The notes beneath the pieces were generated by a model, which was not told the DNA's origin, searched no databases, and worked only from the letters and a program-made list of their open reading frames with translations. A DNA stretch of 64,000 nucleotides from an uncultured Candidatus Saccharibacteria bacterium (GTDB taxonomy: Bacteria > Patescibacteriota > Minisyncoccia > Phycocordibacterales > GWA1-40-21). A program made the position numbers and the translations under genes. The DNA is taken from contig CAZMNX010000001.1 in NCBI GenBank assembly GCA_964567825.1, positions 34,775-98,774 on the forward strand. The letters are read 5' to 3'. This document shows, piece by piece, positions 3,912-62,663 of the stretch (position 1 is its first letter; each line of letters starts with the position of its first letter).

Positions 3912-3934
3912 AGGATAATTATACTCCTTTACTG

Positions 3935-4018
3935 TGCACGGGAGAAGATTTGAACTTCCAAGCCCTTGCGGGCGCTACCACCTCAAGGTAGTGCGTCTAC
4001 CAGTTTCGCCACCCGTGC
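3935..4018 (-). tRNA. tRNA-Leu (GAG), type II with long variable arm
   Basis: Acceptor GCACGGG/CCCGTGC, anticodon stem CTACC/GGTAG with loop TTGAGGT, long variable arm, T-loop TTCAAAT. Confidence 0.75.
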
Positions 4019-8932: not shown

Positions 8933-9310
8933 TTATTTATTTTTATCAATATAACTTTGTAAAATTATCGCCGCTGCTGAAGCATCGATCATATCATTTT
9001 CCCCAGTAATCTGGCTTGCCTGAATTGAAGTCATAAATTCTGGCTCGAAAATAACTTTTAGGCCGATTAATTCCAGCTGTTTTCTAAAACCATCGATCTT
9101 CCACATGATCTCATTAATTTTCCCATGAAAATCACGCGATTCGCCCATCACCACTACTTCCACATTATTTTTAATACACAAATTAGCTATATTTTTCAAT
9201 AAATCACTATCGTTGGTTAAAACAATTTGAGGAAAGGCAATCCTTCCTTCATCATCAGACATAGCAATCCCCACTCTTTTTTCGCCAAAATCAATTCCTA
9301 GATATCGCAT
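8933..9310 (-). CDS. ruvX: Holliday junction resolvase-like protein RuvX/YqgF
   Basis: MRYLGIDFGEKRVGIAMSD N-terminus. Confidence 0.85.
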   Translation of the reverse strand: MRYLGIDFGEKRVGIAMSDDEGRIAFPQIVLTNDSDLLKNIANLCIKNNVEVVVMGESRDFHGKINEIMWKIDGFRKQLELIGLKVIFEPEFMTSIQASQITGENDMIDASAAAIILQSYIDKNK

Positions 9311-9354
9311 CTCCCCATCTTACACTAAAACAAACAATCAATAAATATGTCAAA

Positions 9355-9395
9355 GGGGTGGGGCGAATATTTCGCGCCCCACCCCCCTTTTTTTC
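9355..9395. terminator. GC-rich hairpin GGGGTGGGGCG-AATATTT-CGCGCCCCACCCC followed by T8; boundary of the GC-rich cassette
   Basis: Perfect 11-bp inverted repeat and T-run read directly, 30 nt downstream of the stop of the 9425..10333 gene. Confidence 0.45.
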
Positions 9396-9424
9396 TTCCT
9401 GCTTTCTTTGTACAGACAGACGGC

Positions 9425-10333
9425 TCAACCCTGCCGGTCGAGGATCTGCCGGAGCCGCTCGAGCATCTGCTTGGCTGCTTCCTCCATGGCAATCTCGGAG
9501 TCCTCGGCCGGAATGTGAACAACCTTCCACCCCTTGCGCAGCCCGAGGTTGTTGTGCCCATCAGCCTTCGGAACCGTGTCCCGCACGCCACGCCAGAAGA
9601 TCTGACGTGCCATCGAAACTTGTTCCGTGACGTAACGGTTGCGCGTAACAGCCGCCTCAATCAGACACCTCGCTTCGGCTTCAGATGAAGCCCTGACCTG
9701 ATGGACCGGCTTGAGCTCCGGCACCCGACTGAGGCGCTCGAGGACCACGCCGACACCCAACACGACCGGAGAAACGATTTCCCCGATGATGGTCTCCTCA
9801 CGTTCAAGGCTAACCAGAGGAAACCTTTCCCCCTCGACCTGCGCCGCACTCACCTCCGGCCCGGACATCGCTCGGCGCAAATCGCCGAAGAAGGTCAGCG
9901 CCAAGTGATCAGGCGTCTCAAACAAAGGTGTCGACGAAGCTCGACCACTCGGAGAAACCACCAACCAGCCGTCGCGCAGGGCGATGTCGTTCCAATTCCC
10001 GGGGAAGGTATGCAATACCCCCTGCCAGAAAAGATCGTTCATCATCACGCGAATAGCGTCGATTTCTGTCTGCCGCTCCTGGTGGCTGACCAAGGCCTCA
10101 AAACACGGGCGTTCCCGCCGATAGGTCTGCGTGAAGCTTTCCTCCTCGTCGAGCATGAGCAAGCGAAGCCGCTCGCCTTCACAGTAGAAGTTGCGGATCA
10201 TGGGATCCATCATCGTCCCCACCGAAAGCTCGCCGGGCTGATACTCCCGGTCTGAACCGCCGGTATCGACCACAACCGCAGTGTTGTTAAAGATCCGACG
10301 CGCAGACTCGAACACAGACAACTTGGTAGTCAT
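9425..10333 (-). CDS. GC-rich cassette gene A: unknown 302-aa protein with internal repeat, paralog of the 31093..31947 product
   Basis: About 60% GC ORF in a <40% GC background, with an SD (GAGGGAAA) and a low-GC TTGACA-containing upstream region. Its N-terminus aligns with the 31.9-kb gene (TMMDPMIRNFYCEG vs VLTDPMGRAFYHYG), and the motif LFW.GV..(n)LGLR.GW occurs twice. Confidence 0.5.
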   Translation of the reverse strand: MTTKLSVFESARRIFNNTAVVVDTGGSDREYQPGELSVGTMMDPMIRNFYCEGERLRLLMLDEEESFTQTYRRERPCFEALVSHQERQTEIDAIRVMMNDLFWQGVLHTFPGNWNDIALRDGWLVVSPSGRASSTPLFETPDHLALTFFGDLRRAMSGPEVSAAQVEGERFPLVSLEREETIIGEIVSPVVLGVGVVLERLSRVPELKPVHQVRASSEAEARCLIEAAVTRNRYVTEQVSMARQIFWRGVRDTVPKADGHNNLGLRKGWKVVHIPAEDSEIAMEEAAKQMLERLRQILDRQG

Positions 10334-10431
10334 CGTATTTCCCTCGTTAGACGTTACAGTTCGGTCACACTTCTAATTAATAGACTAATATACAACTAAA
10401 ACTATGTCAACATATCTAAAATAAAGAAATG

Positions 10432-11202: not shown

Positions 11203-11323
11203 GTGTTTTTATTTTTCGCTTAAACATAAAAATATCATACCATTCTATCAAGTTAAAAGTCATCAACGAAAAATACTTACCCGCAGGTCTTTGGATAGAA
11301 TGGAGATTTTAGACAAATGAAAA

Positions 11324-11359
11324 GGCCTCGCACACAAGTGGCGTGAAGTGTGCGAGGCA
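11324..11359 (-). terminator. rho-independent terminator of GC-rich cassette B
   Basis: GGCCTCGCACAC-(12-nt loop)-GTGTGCGAGGC perfect inverted repeat, followed on the minus strand by CTTTTCATTT. Confidence 0.5.
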
Positions 11360-11415
11360 CCCTTCATCCCCCGTACGAGGCCGTAGCGAGAAGATTCTTG
11401 GTTCTCTCAGACCAT

Positions 11416-11892
11416 TTACCAGCCACCGCCCTGCAACCGCCTGGCCACAGTTCTCGGCTTTTCGATGAAGTCGCTCATATCGCTGCCCTGGTAAAAGGGG
11501 CGATACTGATGTTCCTTCATCCAGTCAGCCAAGGCAACGCACCGATTCGCCATACCCATGACGATGGCGTGCGAAGACGGAACGGCTGGTGCGCTCCATC
11601 CTCGACGCTCTTGCCACCACCGCACAATGCGTGAGCGAGCCTCGTGCGTCCAAACCGCGACGTTGCGTTCCCACTGGAGGCGATCGTGAATCTGATCGGC
11701 CGCTTGCCGAAAAAGATTCACAAGCTCTTCTGAGCTGAGTGTCTTCCACTCTTGTCCGCCGTGTATGGGTACCCCCTGAAAGAGGGCCTCGTAACGCCTG
11801 ACGATGGGGCCGGCAAACGAAATGTTATTCGTGTCCGCGCTGCTCACCAACTCAATCCCCCCACCCGTCTTCTTGTAACGAATTATCTTCAC
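11416..11892 (-). CDS. GC-rich cassette gene B: unknown 158-aa protein (GTG start, SD AGGAGA)
   Basis: GC-rich ORF; the GTG start is preceded by ACAGGAGATTCACC; no recognizable motif. Confidence 0.4.
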   Translation of the reverse strand: MKIIRYKKTGGGIELVSSADTNNISFAGPIVRRYEALFQGVPIHGGQEWKTLSSEELVNLFRQAADQIHDRLQWERNVAVWTHEARSRIVRWWQERRGWSAPAVPSSHAIVMGMANRCVALADWMKEHQYRPFYQGSDMSDFIEKPRTVARRLQGGGW

Positions 11893-11977
11893 GGTGAATC
11901 TCCTGTTCTATCCGTTATTTCAACACCTGACTAGAACCCTATATATAACTCTAGCATATTTATTATAAAAAGTCAAA

Positions 11978-29305: not shown

Positions 29306-29722
29306 ATGCCTCACACCTTCAATATTTTCCCCGAATTATTTTCTTTTTCTCTAATTGCACCAAGTATTTTAAGGGTTATTTTGGGTTTGCTCTTTCTCAA
29401 CCTAGGCTCACTTAAGCTCGGAAAAGAGCGATCGGGATGGGTATCCTCGTTTAAGCTTTTAAATATTCACCCAGCCGGATTCTTCACTGGTCTACTGGGA
29501 ATTGTTGAAACAGTTGGTGGCTTTTTACTGATAATCGGTGCTTATACCCAGCTTACCGCTTTAATTTTGTTAATCATTTCAATCTGCGAACTAATGATCG
29601 AGTACCGAGAAGAATCAGTTCTCAAAAGAGATTTTGTTTTCTACTTACTACTAGCAACCATTTGTGTCTCACTTCTACTCACCGGTGCCGGTTTGTTTGC
29701 GGTGGATATTCCAATCCTATAA
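29306..29722 (+). CDS. DoxX family membrane protein
   Basis: Four TM; ILGLLFLNLGSLKL and ETVGGFLLIIG DoxX-like motifs. Confidence 0.55.
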   Translation: MPHTFNIFPELFSFSLIAPSILRVILGLLFLNLGSLKLGKERSGWVSSFKLLNIHPAGFFTGLLGIVETVGGFLLIIGAYTQLTALILLIISICELMIEYREESVLKRDFVFYLLLATICVSLLLTGAGLFAVDIPIL

Positions 29723-29761
29723 AAACGTAAAAGGTCCGGCGCGATGTGCTCGCGCCGGACC
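29721..29761 (-). terminator. rho-independent terminator of GC-rich cassette C
   Basis: GGTCCGGCGCG-ATGTGCT-CGCGCCGGACC perfect 11-bp stem, followed on the minus strand by TTTTACGTTTTT. Confidence 0.55.
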
Positions 29762-29785
29762 CCTCCCTAACCTCCACCCAGACTC

Positions 29786-30220
29786 TTACTCTGTCTGGTA
29801 TTCCTCGATGATTGTAATGAACGAATACCGCTTGACCCCATAGGCGTAACCACGCATGATGTCCCTCATCCCCCGATACTCTTCGCGATAGCCGAAGTTG
29901 AACGAGAAACGATTGTACCACCAATAGTAGTACCAGCCTTCAGTCTGCACGAACTCGCGCCAAGCCTGCGGGTTGAACTGGACGAGTTTTGCACTGTAGC
30001 CCCGCCCCGCTGAAGTTATTGCCACTCGCATAGGCCGAGTGTCAATTCGTGTCACCCACACCCAAGGGGCCGACACGTGCCATCCGCCTCGTTCTTGTAA
30101 CCACATCTTGCCATTGAACCAATTCCTGGCAAGGCCAACCTGAGTGAGGTCGGTGTAGTTCAGAAAAGACAGATAGAAAAGCAGGACAAAGGCCAGAACG
30201 GCCACAATCTTCCTTTTCAT
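29786..30220 (-). CDS. GC-rich cassette C gene 2: SPFH/band-7-like small membrane protein
   Basis: Start MKRKIVAVLAF is a TM helix; GWHVSAPWVWVTRIDTRPMRVAI and AKLVQFNPQ resemble the N-terminal half of an SPFH domain; the ATG overlaps the upstream stop (ATGA). Confidence 0.4.
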   Translation of the reverse strand: MKRKIVAVLAFVLLFYLSFLNYTDLTQVGLARNWFNGKMWLQERGGWHVSAPWVWVTRIDTRPMRVAITSAGRGYSAKLVQFNPQAWREFVQTEGWYYYWWYNRFSFNFGYREEYRGMRDIMRGYAYGVKRYSFITIIEEYQTE

Positions 30221-30768
30221 TTTCCACTTCCGACCGAGGCGGTAGGCACACCAGCCTGACTCGGCGCAAGCTCTTTGCCGACGATGAGAAACGGGCAATC
30301 CCGCCCAGCTTCACTGTCAAACGCGTAGCACCGAAGAATTTCCGCCAGGTCGTTACGGCTGTCTCCAGCCTTCCGACCATGCCAGCGCAGAAAAACGTCG
30401 AGGCCCTTCGGATCAAACTGCACAAGCTTGGCATTCAGTACCCGGCTGCTTATGCTGCCGACACCCCCACCACCCGACGACGTTCCGTTGAGCCCGCCAG
30501 TGATCTGCACCTGAATTGGGCGTAGATCGATCGCGTGCACGCTGTAATGGAACGGATTGCGGATGAAGTAGCCGGTGCGATCAAGATGCTCGATCTCTCC
30601 GGTGTACTTGTTGAAGGTGAACGGAAATTCGTAGTTGTCCACGAACGTCACGAACACGACCCGGAAGAACAGCAAAGCGATGAGCGCAACGCCCAACGAA
30701 ATGCCGCCCCAGACCAGGACGCCCGACAGGCTGATGCGAAAACGAAACTTGCTCGATGTATCATTCAT
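30217..30768 (-). CDS. GC-rich cassette C gene 1: SPFH/band-7-like small membrane protein
   Basis: Start MNDTSS preceded by SD AGAGG; TM helix; GYFIRNPFHYSVHAIDLRPIQVQI and NAKLVQFDPKG are stomatin/HflK-like. Confidence 0.4.
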   Translation of the reverse strand: MNDTSSKFRFRISLSGVLVWGGISLGVALIALLFFRVVFVTFVDNYEFPFTFNKYTGEIEHLDRTGYFIRNPFHYSVHAIDLRPIQVQITGGLNGTSSGGGGVGSISSRVLNAKLVQFDPKGLDVFLRWHGRKAGDSRNDLAEILRCYAFDSEAGRDCPFLIVGKELAPSQAGVPTASVGSGK

Positions 30769-30868
30769 CTCGAACCTCTTAGTTTTGACGAACACACAGA
30801 TCTCTTGGCGAAATACCAAGTTTAATCTCCGTCGCAAGGTTATCACACAATAGACTATTTGTCAACTG

Positions 30869-30941
30869 TCCGCCCAGTTGGAATCGAACCAACGACCTTC
30901 TCCTTAAAAGGGAGCTGCTCTACCAGCTGAGCTATGGGCGG
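30869..30941 (-). tRNA. tRNA-Lys (TTT)
   Basis: Acceptor CCGCCCA/TGGGCGG, D-arm GCTC-AGCTGGTA-GAGC, anticodon loop CTTTTAA, T-arm GTTGG-TTCGATT-CCAAC; the 3' end faces cassette C. Confidence 0.75.
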
Positions 30942-31008
30942 ATTGAAAAGAATATAACAAGAAAAAACCCAAATGTCCAATAATATTCCGACTATACAAT
31001 ATCAAAAA

Positions 31009-31052
31009 AGAGGCCGGTGGTGGGAATCGAACCCACACACCGCCTCCCATAT
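31009..31052 (-). terminator. tRNA T-arm-like hairpin plus T6: terminator of cassette D, or a tRNA 3' remnant
   Basis: On the minus strand GGCGGTGTGTGGG-TTCGATT-CCCACCACCGGCC is followed by TCTTTTTTGA. It has a T-loop-like TTCGATTCC, but no complementary 5' acceptor strand could be found. Confidence 0.4.
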
Positions 31053-31092
31053 TTGTTCTCCACCTCCAAACTAGATGTCTGTCGAGCCCCGT

Positions 31093-31947
31093 TCAGCCAA
31101 CGCCGACCATAACCTCCTGTGGCGGGAACGACGTCAGCATCCAACCCGCCCGGAGGCCAAGTGAGGACGTCTGCTCGCCATCGAGCATCTTCTCGACCAC
31201 CCCCGCCCAGAACAGATCGGCGGCCAAGTCACTGCGAGTTCGCGCGCGTTCCATGGCGACCAGAACCTTCCTGACGTAACCGATGGAGTGCGAAGCCACG
31301 AAGGCATTCATACCCGTCTTGTCGTTCATGAAGGGAATCTCGGCTTTGGCATCGTCCCGAATCTGAGACGAAACGTTCCAGAGTGCCCGCAGAGCTGGAT
31401 CATCGATCGTCGCCATTTCGGCTTCGCCCTCTTCGAGTGGCGAATCCACGTCAAACGAAGCTTCGGCCGCCGTTCCGCTGTCGCCCTTCAGAGCTGCAGT
31501 CACCTCATCCAGAAAGTTCGGATGGGGATTCTTCACGTCACCACCGAACTGACCGAATAGCCCGTCCTTCTTGGCGAACACCCGGAACCCAGAGCAGATC
31601 ACTCCCTGGTCGAAGATGCCGCGCATGGCCGGCAACTCGCGCAAAATGCATTCCCAAGCGAAACGCATCAGCAGGTTGCCGTCCTCCCTCGCCCGCTGCG
31701 CGCTCTGAATCCGCCTGCCGAACTCGCCGAGATTGGGCAGACTGATCAGGCCGCCGGACAGCGACTCCATCACTTTCTCGCGACCGTAATGGTAGAACGC
31801 CCGCCCCATGGGATCGGTCAGGACACCGATCTCCTCGTAACCCCCTGGGGCCTCTGTTCTATTGACAGTGCAGATCTCCGACGGGACGTGCCCGTTCAAA
31901 ATCTCACCCACCAAAACGAACGCCGACTTACTCTTGCTTGTGCTCAT
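31093..31947 (-). CDS. GC-rich cassette gene D: unknown protein, paralog of the 9425..10333 product
   Basis: About 60% GC; ATG at 31945-31947 preceded by GAAAGG; shares DPMGRAFYHYG and ADLFWAGVV..(n)..LGLRAGW motifs with cassette A. Confidence 0.5.
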   Translation of the reverse strand: MSTSKSKSAFVLVGEILNGHVPSEICTVNRTEAPGGYEEIGVLTDPMGRAFYHYGREKVMESLSGGLISLPNLGEFGRRIQSAQRAREDGNLLMRFAWECILRELPAMRGIFDQGVICSGFRVFAKKDGLFGQFGGDVKNPHPNFLDEVTAALKGDSGTAAEASFDVDSPLEEGEAEMATIDDPALRALWNVSSQIRDDAKAEIPFMNDKTGMNAFVASHSIGYVRKVLVAMERARTRSDLAADLFWAGVVEKMLDGEQTSSLGLRAGWMLTSFPPQEVMVGVG

Positions 31948-32050
31948 GGCACTGCCTTTCTGGTCCAATAATGTGGACCGATTGACTAACCAACAACCGA
32001 ACAGACATCAAAAAACTACTAAACCTAAAAAGGAGATTAGCACGAATAAT

Positions 32051-32692
32051 CTATTGTGTCAAAGCGGCATCAATCTGGGCTTTAAGAGTTTGCAGATCCG
32101 TAACCTCTACCCCATTTAAAAGCAAAAAGGGTGTGTAGTCCAAAGCCAAAGCCTTGGCATCATTCAAATCAGCCTGAATAAAATCAGCAAATTTCTTTTG
32201 ATCAATATCGGCTTTAAATTTTACAATGTCTAAACCAACAGTTTTAGCGTAACTCACAAAAAGAGCCGTCGGATCTTTTATCTCGGCCCAATCATTTTGA
32301 TTTTTGTAAAGTAATTCACTCATTTCCCAATATTTACCCTGAGCATTTGCCGCCTCAGCAGCTTCGGCTGAAGGAAAAGCATTAATGTGTTGAGATAATG
32401 GAAAATTACGATACACAAAATTAAAATTGGGGTTGGTTTTATAAGAATCGGCAATTTGTTTTACAAAAGGTGAAACCGTAGCACAGGCTGGACATTGAAA
32501 ATCACCAAACTCTACTAAGGTAACTTTCGCTGTTGTTGTACCAGTCATGTGGCTATTTGGTCTAACCAACAAACTAAGGTCGCGGGCCTTACCATCATTA
32601 GGCTTCGGAGCAAACCAAATAAAAGCTCCGAGTAAAACTACGCAGATAACGACAATGCCAACAATCATTTTTACTTCACTATTTATTTTCAT
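32051..32692 (-). CDS. DsbA-family thiol:disulfide oxidoreductase, N-terminal TM
   Basis: FGDFQCPAC CxxC active site in a thioredoxin-fold context. Confidence 0.7.
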   Translation of the reverse strand: MKINSEVKMIVGIVVICVVLLGAFIWFAPKPNDGKARDLSLLVRPNSHMTGTTTAKVTLVEFGDFQCPACATVSPFVKQIADSYKTNPNFNFVYRNFPLSQHINAFPSAEAAEAANAQGKYWEMSELLYKNQNDWAEIKDPTALFVSYAKTVGLDIVKFKADIDQKKFADFIQADLNDAKALALDYTPFLLLNGVEVTDLQTLKAQIDAALTQ

Positions 32693-55413: not shown

Positions 55414-55490
55414 TTTTATTTAAAATTATTCTAATAAATCAATTTTTATAACTCCATTCTACTCTCCCTGCTTTATTATGCAAATTTTAA

Positions 55491-55510
55491 AGAGCTCGAC
55501 CGAAGTCGAG
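55491..55510 (-). terminator. hairpin GCTCGAC-CGAAGT-CGAGC downstream of cassette E
   Basis: Inverted repeat followed on the minus strand by CTTTAAAATTT. Confidence 0.35.
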
Positions 55511-55583
55511 CCCTGTTGATAGTGGTTCCGGACATATCAGGTCCGTTGCAGAGTAATCTGCGTAGAAGTTAGGAAAAGGACCG

Positions 55584-56405
55584 CTAGTCCTTCATGAGGA
55601 TCTCGAGCGCCGCCGCCCAATCCTTGGTGCCGTCCGCGTTCATCGGCGCGTGCATCATGACCGTCTTCGCCCCATCGATCTTCACCGAGAAGGACGAGTA
55701 GTAGTCAAATGCCGCCGAGAACGGATCCGCGTGATGGTTCAAGTCGGTGACCACCGCAACAAACTTGGCTCCACGATGCGCCGCCTCGACCATGAGGAGA
55801 ACACCGTAGGGAACGAGCTCGCCGAGCTTGAAGTTGCTGCCCATTGTCTTGGAAGACATCGGGAGATGCAAGTCCGTGAGAACGACGTCGAACTTCTCGC
55901 TGCCGAGAGTCTTCATCGCTTCCTCGTAGCCCGTCGCCGTCGTGAGCTTCTGTCCGGCCAGGCCAGACTTCGCGCTCACGATGTGTGTGGCCGTATCGTC
56001 GATGACGAGGATGCGGAGAGCATCAGGGCGGAGAGGAACTGCTTCCTCAACCACTTTGGCCACCGGAACTTCCAGCGGTTGGAGTCTCGCACGAATCCCG
56101 TTGATGACATCAACGAGACCAACCAGGATATTCACCGTGGGGATGATCAAGCAGTTCTCGGGCAACCGCAAGCGCTCCTCACGATTCGACAGCCTGAGGC
56201 AGGCGTACGACTTCTCCTGGCTGTACCCACGCTCAATCTCACGCACGTCTGTGAAGATGACGAGATCCGCCTCGTCCACCGTTTCCACGAACACATGCGA
56301 AGTTTCGTTGCCGACGATCGGCAAGACCTGCTTGATCGAGCGTGGGAGGGGTCCGTCCTCCATCGCGAGACGAATTCGAACCGGTCGGTTTGTTGTTGTG
56401 CTCAT
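55584..56405 (-). CDS. GC-rich cassette E gene 2: unknown N-terminal domain plus C-terminal receiver (REC)-like domain
   Basis: ILVIDDTATHIVSAKSG...KFDVVLTDLHLPM...VAVVTD resembles CheY-like DD / D-phosphoacceptor / T spacing; start ATG at 56403-56405 with SD AAAGGAAAAG. Confidence 0.45.
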   Translation of the reverse strand: MSTTTNRPVRIRLAMEDGPLPRSIKQVLPIVGNETSHVFVETVDEADLVIFTDVREIERGYSQEKSYACLRLSNREERLRLPENCLIIPTVNILVGLVDVINGIRARLQPLEVPVAKVVEEAVPLRPDALRILVIDDTATHIVSAKSGLAGQKLTTATGYEEAMKTLGSEKFDVVLTDLHLPMSSKTMGSNFKLGELVPYGVLLMVEAAHRGAKFVAVVTDLNHHADPFSAAFDYYSSFSVKIDGAKTVMMHAPMNADGTKDWAAALEILMKD

Positions 56406-56557
56406 TGGCACTTTTCCTTTCTGTTGTTGTAAAGATCTTTTCCGTTTCGTCCTTTTGGACTCATCAGGTAAAGTACTCACTTTACTACGGAGGGGCATTT
56501 ACTATGGCGCCCCAGATGCCATGAAAGTTTCTTAGCACTTACAACAGATGAAGGTCC

Positions 56558-56994
56558 CTAGTCCCGCTTCGGATCGGCCCAGAAGATCGCGTAGGCGATC
56601 ATTTCCGGGGTGACGTTTGTCACCTGGCCGATCTCATCGAAGTACCACGGAGTGGCCCGATTCAGGTCCATACCATCGGTACAGACGATGAGACCGAGCT
56701 TCTGCCGACTCTCCTGGCTCATGTCCAGGGCATTCCCCGCGATCATGAGCTTCCAGCCGGTGGCCTGCAGGAAATTCTGCAGATCGCCAGCCTTGATCGG
56801 AACGACCAGCCGGCCGTCCACGTACCGAACGCACCGCTCCTGAGGAACGATGACGTCGGCGGCCGCCTGCGCCTCGCCGCATCCCGGACAGGGCTTAGCT
56901 CCGCCCACCGAGACGCGGACCAGAGCCGCCGCCAGAAACAAGCCGACCCCGACCACCGCAATCACCCACAGGGTATCGCAAATGCGCTTCATCA
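56558..56994 (-). CDS. GC-rich cassette E gene 1: membrane-anchored hypothetical protein
   Basis: MMKRICDTLWVIAVVGVGLFLAAALV TM; SD AAGGGAGAG before the ATG; GC-rich. Confidence 0.4.
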
Positions 56995-57131
56995 TGACTT
57001 TCTCTCCCTTTATTTCAATCACCTATTGATCGCGTTGTGCGACCCGGGGTAGGTGAAACCCCACTGTCTAGTATGATAGCATACTTTAGGCTAAAAGTCA
57101 AGCACTTTTTAAGGCCCTAGGGAGGGAGTGT

Positions 57132-61718: not shown

Positions 61719-62162
61719 TCACCACACTATTTCCCGCTCGTTCTCCGAGATAAATTTAAAATTAAGTCTGATTAAATCTTTTGGCAAGACATCAATCACC
61801 CGCTCTGGCCATTCTAATAAAATTAAATTGCTTTTATCTTGGAGTATTTTTTCAAAACCCAAAACCTGTAACTCTCTTCCGGAGTCAAGACGATAAGCAT
61901 CAATGTGAATTAAGTTTTTAAAATTATTTTTACCGTCGAGCTGATATATTTTTTCAATTACAAAAGTTGGACTGGTCATAAACTCATTAATTCCCAAATG
62001 GCGACCGAGAGCTTGCGAAAAAGTGGTTTTACCAGAACCGAGGTCGCCAAACAAGCCGATGAGGGTGGCCGTTTCCTTTCCCTTTTCTAATTTAATAATC
62101 TTACTTAAAAAATCACCCGCAATCTTATTCGTCTCTTCTAAACTTTTACTTAAAAATTTCAT
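61719..62162 (-). CDS. tsaE: tRNA threonylcarbamoyladenosine biosynthesis protein TsaE
   Basis: LFGDLGSGKTTFSQALGRHLGI P-loop and HIDAYRL; 147 aa. Confidence 0.85.
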   Translation of the reverse strand: MKFLSKSLEETNKIAGDFLSKIIKLEKGKETATLIGLFGDLGSGKTTFSQALGRHLGINEFMTSPTFVIEKIYQLDGKNNFKNLIHIDAYRLDSGRELQVLGFEKILQDKSNLILLEWPERVIDVLPKDLIRLNFKFISENEREIVW

Positions 62163-62185
62163 CGCTATATTTTAGCATAAAAAAA

Positions 62186-62230
62186 GGAGCGCGCTGGGAG
62201 ATTTTCCTCTCCCAAACGCGCCAGGCCCTT
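62186..62230 (-). terminator. rho-independent terminator of GC-rich cassette F
   Basis: Compound hairpin GCGCG-CT-GGGAGA-TTTTCC-TCTCCC-AAA-CGCGC, followed on the minus strand by TCCTTTTTTT. Confidence 0.6.
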
Positions 62231-62236
62231 AGGCCT

Positions 62237-62575
62237 TCACCGTTGCCGTGGTGGTAATTGGGGCAACAGCCCCTGGAACTCCTGGCCCGATGGGGACTGA
62301 CTGACACCAGCCTGAGACCCGCCACCACTCGTTCCCCAACTCCAGTTCCCGCTGGTGTGCCAGGTACCACCATTGTATGGCACAACCGCCGCGCCATTGC
62401 CCGTGCTGCGGGCTTTGTTGTGATAGGTTGTCGTTTCCTTGATCGTACCATCGGGCAGGGTCACCCGCTCGTAGGTGGTTTCCCCGCTGTTTTCGGATTC
62501 TGACACCTGTGGTGCCGTCATGCACCCGCCCGCCAGCACGAGCCCAATCATCGCAAAGAACACTGTCGTTTTCAT
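62237..62575 (-). CDS. GC-rich cassette F: small lipoprotein (lipobox LAGGC), Gly/Ser/Thr/Trp-rich
   Basis: MKTTVFFAMIGLVLAGGC signal/lipobox; SD AGGGGA; GC-rich. Confidence 0.5.
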   Translation of the reverse strand: MKTTVFFAMIGLVLAGGCMTAPQVSESENSGETTYERVTLPDGTIKETTTYHNKARSTGNGAAVVPYNGGTWHTSGNWSWGTSGGGSQAGVSQSPSGQEFQGLLPQLPPRQR

Positions 62576-62634
62576 ATCGCATCCCCTGGTTAACCCACAC
62601 TATCACTCGGAATTTCGAAAACTACTATTCCACT

Positions 62635-62663
62635 ATTATACACCCAAACGTCTTTCCTGTCAA
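62635..62663 (-). promoter_or_regulatory. consensus sigma70-like promoter (TTGACA-17-TATAAT) for the cassette F lipoprotein gene
   Basis: Minus strand reads TTGACAGGAAAGACGTTTGGGTGTATAAT about 60 nt upstream of the ATG at 62575. Confidence 0.5.

Follow-up and report, generated by a model that had tools for sequence, protein, structure and literature searches.

Between the gene for tRNA-Lys(UUU) and a GC-rich gene that we call cassette D, the minus strand of a contig from an uncultured Candidatus Saccharibacteria bacterium carries a short element that looks like the T-arm of a transfer RNA (tRNA). The whole stretch of DNA analyzed here, 64,000 nucleotides (nt) long, is referred to as the window. 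The locus raises a simple question: is the element the 3′ remnant of a tRNA gene, or is it a transcription terminator that mimics a T-arm? The initial annotation had offered these as alternatives. The evidence described below says both, as the sequence is tRNA-derived and the shape and position are those of a terminator. We regard it as reasonably probable that a relic of a tRNA-Leu gene now serves as the predicted intrinsic (Rho-independent) terminator of the cassette D gene.

The hairpin and its tRNA-Leu(CAA) sequence

Direct reading of the window from 31046 down to 31004 on the minus strand gave GAGGCGGTG-T-GTGGG-TTCGATT-CCCAC-CACC-G-GCCTC-TTTTTT, in letter-for-letter agreement with the reading in the initial annotation (segments in Table 1). 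The part at 31036-31020, GTGGG-TTCGATT-CCCAC, is a consensus T-arm with a 5-base-pair (bp) stem, a UUCRANY loop and the G53-C61 pair, as in the T-arms of tRNA and transfer-messenger RNA (tmRNA). The T-loop and T-stem that had been called tRNA-like are thus borne out, both by this consensus and by a 26-nt identity to tRNA-Leu. At -24.6 kcal/mol, the fold of the 43-nt element is more stable than chance would give (z = -4.4): 200 shuffles that preserved dinucleotide content produced nothing as stable. The hairpin lies 46 nt past the stop codon (31095-31093) of the cassette D open reading frame (ORF), on the same strand. From the T run to the 5′ end of tRNA-Lys(UUU) at 30941 is 62 nt, and the hairpin stands ~24 nt upstream of the conserved -35 hexamer of the tRNA-Lys promoter.

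The 3′ part of the element belongs to a specific tRNA. From 31038 to 31013, all 26 contiguous nt are shared with the 3′ ends of full tRNA-Leu(CAA) genes in public genomes and metagenomes. An exact 23-mer that includes the element's own TTCGATT loop was present in 51 contigs, 49 of them from metagenomes and 2 viral; these included 26 with a complete tRNA-Leu(CAA), 3 with another tRNA-Leu and 12 with a tRNA-Thr. The complete tRNA-Leu(CAA) genes with the 23-mer end in ...CGTGTGGGTTCGATTCCCACCACCGGCA(CCA), and the GTGT prefix of the 26-nt block is compatible with tRNA-Leu and not with tRNA-Thr. A scan of one genome per species with the degenerate 22-mer GGGTTCRANTCCCACCACCGGC returned at least 120 loci. 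Among the matches listed, ARAGORN called 102 tRNA-Leu(CAA), 4 tRNA-Leu(UAA) and 6 tRNA-Thr, and the taxa, again among the matches listed, were Firmicutes, Actinobacteria, Chloroflexi and the candidate phyla radiation (CPR; Doudnabacteria, locus L069, and Saccharibacteria). The tRNA-Leu(CAA) genes in this set, more than 100, have the T-stem and acceptor strand of the element.

A profile hidden Markov model built from 73 distinct tRNA-Leu(CAA) genes gave a similar picture. In an nhmmer search of 1.2 kilobases (kb), the profile matched 31046..31013 with E = 7.5e-9, which scales linearly to ~1e-6 for the whole window. The alignment covered only positions 50-83 of the 84-position model and ended at position 50; no D-arm, anticodon arm or variable arm upstream of the T-arm was present in it. 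The discriminator, position 73, is C in the element (31012), whereas it is A in every tRNA-Leu match and T only in tRNA-Thr matches. The element is very probably a relic derived from tRNA-Leu, with CAA the most likely isoacceptor.

The initial annotation had reported no complementary 5′ acceptor strand within 120 nt, yet GGCGGTG directly abuts the T-arm, and the strand need not be sought ~50 nt upstream. The reference for this comparison was the 5′ end of the tRNA-Leu genes retrieved, GCCGGTG plus U8. The layout of the element thus runs from acceptor positions 1-7 through U8 to the T-arm (49-65) and the acceptor strand at 66-72, with positions 9-48 gone. Given the 26-nt identity and the matching 5′ strand, the element looks like a tRNA-Leu minihelix lacking positions 9-48. 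Two differences separate it from a plain deletion product: C2 is replaced by G, and A73 by C. In the tRNA register the first of these produces a G-G mismatch at 2:71. When the register is slipped by one base, both changes form pairs (G2-C72 and G1-C73), and together with a flanking A-U and a flanking G-C the helix grows to 14 bp and reaches the U tract. Comparison of alternative registers identified the slipped register as the minimum-energy fold. These base changes are what we would expect of a relic that was reshaped into, or retained as, a terminator.

The simplest origin would be a single deletion in a tRNA-Leu(CAA) gene, in which positions 9-48 were lost at a GTG microhomology (G7-U8-G9 versus G47-U48-G49). 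The substitutions C2 to G and A73 to C, both of which pair in the slipped register, would have followed. By another route, a fragment left by integration at an attachment (att) site in a donor genome could have gained its complementary 5′ arm later.

A predicted terminator at the edge of a foreign cassette

The element has what defines an intrinsic terminator: past the end of a gene, and on its strand, a stable GC-rich stem-loop runs directly into a U tract. RNAfold was used to rank the window's 291 candidates for a hairpin plus T run; the element came fourth in strength, and all four leading candidates lie where a cassette (C, F, A or D) has its 3′ end. Its rank and its 3′ location therefore give it the position and shape of the cassette's intrinsic terminator. 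A strong GC-rich hairpin and a T run close every GC-rich cassette of the window on its coding strand, and only the hairpin of cassette D is tRNA-like. We think it likely that the element is the intrinsic terminator of the foreign cassette gene, placed just ahead of the tRNA-Lys promoter. The tRNA-Leu relic would have arrived with foreign DNA at the 3′ edge of a GC-rich single-gene cassette, its hairpin and six T would stop transcription of the cassette gene without Rho, and termination there would shield the tRNA-Lys promoter from read-through.

Several observations weigh against this reading of the element as a tRNA-Leu relic turned terminator. Any hairpin arm that pairs with CACCGGC would look like a tRNA 5′ acceptor strand, so that the deletion route is inseparable from later selection for a hairpin. 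Exact and degenerate patterns picked up no further minihelix in viral or metagenome collections, and a search for a donor gave no DNA match for the cassette in phage or plasmid collections. In addition, the element is missing from the output of a simple consensus terminator scan of the window, its stem being interrupted by the bulges.

The slot between dsbA and tRNA-Lys was compared across related loci, defined as those encoding DsbA homologues with 62-100% identity; the close homologues carry the label Candidatus Paceibacterota. An independent assembly (L121) has the same cassette D and an identical hairpin. At L127 (DsbA 65%) the slot is empty, and 46 nt separate dsbA from the same promoter and tRNA-Lys. 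The slot is occupied by a low-GC ORF of 165 amino acids (aa) at L123 and L124 (DsbA 72%), and by an unrelated membrane protein of 145-155 aa at L125 (69%) and L128 (62%). At L122 (DsbA 90%) and L125, the module made up of the tRNA-Lys promoter and gene is inverted relative to dsbA. Because the slot contents differ in this way, the dsbA/tRNA-Lys slot is a variable region; the interval spanning dsbA, tRNA-Lys and doxX holds different genes in every relative examined and is thus a recombination hot spot.

No tRNA-Leu or T-arm-like element was present in the slot of L122, L123, L125, L127, L128 or the short L124 and L126 loci (DsbA 62-90%). The homology of the relatives with the window starts at the -35 hexamer of tRNA-Lys, downstream of the hairpin, which places the hairpin on the inserted side of the junction. 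The comparison of slots argues that cassette D and its hairpin are a strain-level insertion and that an ancestral tRNA-Leu resident at this site is unlikely. Separately, the 5′ end of tRNA-Lys (CAGCTATGGGCGGATT) is duplicated ~60 nt away at L125. Two assemblies of this strain, independent of each other, are interrupted here: the L121 contig ends at 5783, inside tRNA-Lys, and a 2950-bp contig of GCA_041443045.1 / JGI 3300059473 breaks nearby too. Both breaks, within or just past the junction of tRNA-Lys and cassette C, may reflect strain heterogeneity or a change of coverage at the GC-rich cassettes.

The genome, which is Paceibacterota-like, has ~40% GC, with CPR-type housekeeping genes (fpg, spoU, doxX, dsbB-like, dsbA, ABC transporters and a Mur ligase). 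Against this background, GC content at third codon positions (GC3) is 0.74 in the cassette D gene and 0.64-0.79 across the ORFs of the six GC-rich segments, compared to 0.31-0.43 in neighboring genes. No transposase, integrase or terminal repeats were seen at the six segments. Among 5.8 billion sequences the cassette D protein had no close homologue besides itself, and an exhaustive HMMER search returned 12 distant relatives of 211-349 aa; cassette A of the window is a paralogue of cassette D. At four loci with distant relatives (L180, L182, L184 and L185) the gene has a higher GC content than its flanks, and a strong terminator stands after it. These four terminator hairpins are mutually unrelated and none is tRNA-like; with ordinary terminators at all four loci, the idea that cassette D homologues conserve a tRNA-like 3′ element was rejected. 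The cassette D, C1 and C2 proteins had no Pfam or PHROG match. Cassette C, directly downstream of tRNA-Lys, consists of two overlapping tandem paralogues (BLASTP E 5e-10) that have in common an AKLVQF(N/D)P motif and a hydrophobic N-terminal segment. The element was also compared with integron attC sites, and this candidate was rejected: the sequence has no R′′/R′ cores (RYYYAAC ... GTTRRRY), the cassettes are dispersed rather than arrayed, and no integrase was found.

Table 1. Coordinates of the hairpin, its surroundings and the other features discussed (window positions unless a locus is named)
Feature	Coordinates	Strand	Description
Hairpin, very probably tRNA-Leu-derived	31010..31046	-	37-base stem-loop: 14 bp, single-base bulges T 31037 and G 31015, 7-nt loop TTCGATT
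5′ arm GAGGCGGTG	31046-31038	-	hairpin segment
Bulged T	31037	-	hairpin segment
T-stem GTGGG	31036-31032	-	hairpin segment
Loop TTCGATT	31031-31025	-	hairpin segment
CCCAC	31024-31020	-	hairpin segment
CACC	31019-31016	-	hairpin segment
Bulged G	31015	-	hairpin segment
GCCTC	31014-31010	-	hairpin segment
U tract (TTTTTT) of predicted terminator	31004..31009	-	six T immediately 3′ of the stem
5′ acceptor-like strand GGCGGTG + T	31037..31044	-	7/8 positions match tRNA-Leu 5′ acceptor strand + U8 (GCCGGTGT); abuts the T-stem
26-nt block GTGTGGGTTCGATTCCCACCACCGGC	31013..31038	-	identical to tRNA-Leu(CAA) positions ~47-72: end of variable arm, T-arm, 3′ acceptor strand
10-nt direct repeat ATTATTGGAC	31963..31972 and 30975-30984	-	brackets cassette D and the hairpin; downstream copy overlaps the tRNA-Lys -35
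Cassette D gene	31093..31947	-	284 aa from ATG, or 291 aa from TTG 31968; GC-rich, rare two-module family
tRNA-Lys promoter	30951..30980	-	TTGGACA, 17 nt, TATATT; conserved in relatives (alignment by eye with L123 and L127)
tRNA-Lys(UUU) gene	30868..30941	-	intact, downstream of the hairpin; ARAGORN, Rfam 69.9 bits
Inverted tRNA-Lys modules	L122 4065-4140; L125 7148-7221 and 7225-7300		compared with window 30868-30980
Six GC-rich segments	9306-10382, 11274-11940, 29634-30860, 30990-32001, 55477-57093, 62143-62636	-	eight ORFs, all on the minus strand
Cassette C ORFs	29786-30298 and 30217-30846	-	overlapping tandem paralogues
tRNA-Leu(GAG)	3934-4018	-	called by ARAGORN, not on the Rfam gathering-score list

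Other explanations for the element

Williams reportedly described, in 2002, tRNA gene 3′ fragments left behind by integrative elements. An insertion of this kind at the locus itself would mean that an integrase-bearing element carrying cassette D inserted site-specifically, with the 3′ end of its target tRNA, either displaced or imported, left as the fragment. The 26-nt identity to the 3′ part of tRNA-Leu(CAA) is what such a scar would display, and tRNA-Leu(CAA) is a real target, with orphan 3′ fragments at L031, L072, L089, L144, L146, L157, L167, L173 and L177. At L144 and L146 the arrangement is classic: a full tRNA-Leu, 1.9 kb, then the fragment. Fragments of this type are pervasive products of integration (PMC9897764, PMC4383910). 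The 10-nt direct repeat on both sides of cassette D may likewise mark an insertion junction, but it falls short of statistical significance, with repeats of at least 10 nt also present at 32 of 400 random boundary pairs (p ~0.08). Target-site duplications were looked for around all cassettes and rejected, with this repeat at cassette D and none at the others.

However, no integrase lies within ~10 kb of the element. Ten of the larger ORFs on either side, from 22.6 to 42.4 kb, proved to be housekeeping genes, with no integrase or recombinase among them. An intact cognate tRNA in direct orientation is also absent: the window has no same-strand tRNA-Leu upstream, and no minus-strand tRNA of any kind above 31046. 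Its sole tRNA-Leu, with the GAG anticodon (Table 1), has an unrelated 3′ end. The target would have to be the tRNA-Lys neighborhood, and relatives never have tRNA-Leu at this site. The discriminator is C, where all tRNA-Leu matches have A. Finally, the clearest scars begin in the anticodon loop or T-stem and have no obvious complementary 5′ arm. The suggestion in the initial annotation that a tRNA 3′ fragment would mark integrase-mediated insertion is left unsupported by the lack of an integrase and of a partner tRNA-Leu, by the relatives and by the discriminator. We consider insertion by an integrase at this locus unlikely; it may well be that the fragment was first an att scar, or a damaged tRNA-Leu gene, of some GC-rich donor and that it came in with the cassette. 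As for the intact arrangements seen elsewhere, the metagenome contigs L144 (8340-10400), L146, L167 and L173, with 64-68% GC, carry a full tRNA-Leu(CAA) and, ~1.9 kb on, its own 3′ fragment beginning at the anticodon loop. The very small island between the two in the L144 group has a gene for a Big_13 (bacterial Ig-like) protein but lacks an integrase.

Movement could conceivably have occurred by a different process. In this scenario, GC-rich single-gene cassettes of the Paceibacterota lineage would be moved by an integrase-independent capture that favors tRNA-adjacent slots, and the minihelix, far from being a dead relic, would take an active part in it as a folded site of recombination or processing, for instance through cleavage by RNase P or extension by the CCA-adding enzyme. 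We find this highly doubtful.

The element might instead have decayed in place, as an ancestral tRNA-Leu that stood in a tandem cluster upstream of tRNA-Lys and was destroyed by cassette insertion or by deletion. Such clusters of tRNA genes are frequent, and the element is co-oriented with tRNA-Lys, 62 nt away. Set against this, the space between dsbA and tRNA-Lys in related loci is either empty or filled by an unrelated ORF, with tRNA-Leu in none of them, and homology begins only at the tRNA-Lys -35, past the hairpin. Decay in place is accordingly very improbable.

Little more can be said for a functional tRNA-like module, in which RNase P, RNase Z, the CCA-adding enzyme, TruB or TrmA would recognize the minihelix and process, tag or stabilize the 3′ end of the cassette mRNA. 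RNase P and the CCA-adding enzyme accept acceptor/T-arm minihelices as minimal substrates, and the element offers a perfect consensus T-arm with the G53-C61 closing pair and a UUCGAUU loop. However, the structure is not conserved, as the four homologous cassettes have ordinary terminators, and a second copy turned up in no collection scanned. The lack of a tRNA-like hairpin in homologues and of a second minihelix argues against a conserved functional module. The tRNA register also contains the 2:71 G-G mismatch and is less stable than the slipped one. The U tract starts 3 nt after position 73, and an intrinsic terminator would therefore account for every feature. A role of this kind in the maturation of the mRNA seems to us only barely plausible.

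Chance would require that an ordinary GC-rich terminator came to resemble a T-arm. The Rfam models score only the 17-nt T-arm, and since all cassettes end in GC-rich terminators one of them might look T-arm-like. However, the identity covers 26 nt in a row and takes in the acceptor strand of a single isoacceptor, the 51 public contigs that share the exact 23-mer are independent of one another (nearly all of them real tRNA genes or tRNA fragments), and the profile E-value is 7.5e-9. By these sequence matches the resemblance to tRNA is not chance, and mimicry of this sort is effectively refuted.

With respect to a complete gene, ARAGORN at default settings and Rfam at the gathering score found no tRNA or tmRNA at 31000-31110; in the whole window, ARAGORN called 7 tRNAs and Rfam, at the gathering score, 6. 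The Rfam tRNA model RF00005 had no match at 31000-31110, and ARAGORN in tmRNA mode was negative, also with lowered thresholds. A permissive Rfam scan of 30850-32100 aligned only the 17-nt T-arm, to the tmRNA model RF00023, with 15.5 bits against a gathering score of 47. With lowered thresholds, the check for a complete tRNA proposed in the initial annotation yielded only an unstable 99-nt pseudo-call at 31010-31108, typed as Asn or, depending on the options, as Pro with an intron. This call overlaps the ORF stop codon, the next lower threshold adds two calls inside the ORF, and we do not find it credible. A search for a full tRNA with the same 3′ end, also proposed there, found a match in none of the 7 tRNAs of the window.

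Further candidates were rejected on similar grounds. A tmRNA or permuted tmRNA matched in the T-arm alone. If cassette D were the intron of a split tRNA, its far edge should carry a 5′ acceptor strand, but none was present there, and the ARAGORN intron mode was not credible. A degenerate full-length tRNA-Leu pseudogene did not fit a profile alignment that stops at model position 50. A copy of the 3′ end of the neighboring tRNA-Lys was dismissed because the T-arms are alike in only 15 of 17 nt and the acceptor strand is different, and a 3′ end common to another tRNA of the window had 0/7 matches. A genuine but unusual tRNA gene (intron-bearing, split or armless) is extremely improbable: its one recommendation is the 99-nt call, whose identity shifts with the options and which overlaps the stop codon and is joined by extra calls within the ORF, the tRNA-Leu profile has no homology 5′ of model position 50, GCCGGTG is absent from the minus strand of cassette D and from its far edge, and the Rfam tRNA and tmRNA models do not match.

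Significance and comparison with known systems

A tRNA-Leu relic that doubles as a predicted terminator is a small point on its own, and the wider context of the cassettes may matter more. More unusual than the hairpin is the presence, in a low-GC CPR genome, of dispersed single-gene cassettes with high GC3, each with its own strong terminator, and at least one of these encodes a member of a rare protein family whose genes remain GC-rich in low-GC genomes elsewhere. Within that context the element dates and delimits a recent foreign insertion beside tRNA-Lys. It also provides a worked example of a tRNA fragment that has neither partner nor integrase and is folded as a hairpin where a terminator is needed. 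Relics of this type can confuse tRNA annotation and island finders that rely on tRNA fragments.

Fragments of tRNA gene 3′ ends left by integrative elements are the basis of the Islander method (PMC4383910) and have been reviewed (PMC9897764). Similar to these scars, the element is identical to a tRNA 3′ end (T-arm and acceptor strand) and lies at the edge of DNA of foreign composition, beside a tRNA gene. Unlike them, it has no intact partner tRNA-Leu, integrase or matching direct repeat, its discriminator is changed, and it is fused to a complementary 5′ arm, forming a long hairpin that runs into a U tract.

Acceptor/T-arm minihelices are known as experimental minimal substrates, either laboratory constructs or hypothetical ancestors (PMC4695843, PMC11392972). 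The element shares their parts: a 7-nt 5′ acceptor strand, U8, a 5-bp T-stem, a UUCGAUU loop and a 7-nt 3′ acceptor strand. It differs from them in the G-G mismatch at 2:71, the lack of CCA and the greater stability of the slipped register.

Compared to intrinsic terminators, the element has the expected 14-bp GC-rich stem, 7-nt loop and six U, 46 nt past the stop codon on the coding strand, and its architecture is the same as that of the other GC-rich cassettes here and of homologous cassettes elsewhere. Where it departs from them is in the source of its stem-loop, whose sequence is not arbitrary and very probably comes from a tRNA-Leu gene, complete with a perfect T-loop. The element is a fresh example of two known things, the tRNA gene fragment and the Rho-independent terminator; its modest twist is that the first seems to do the work of the second.
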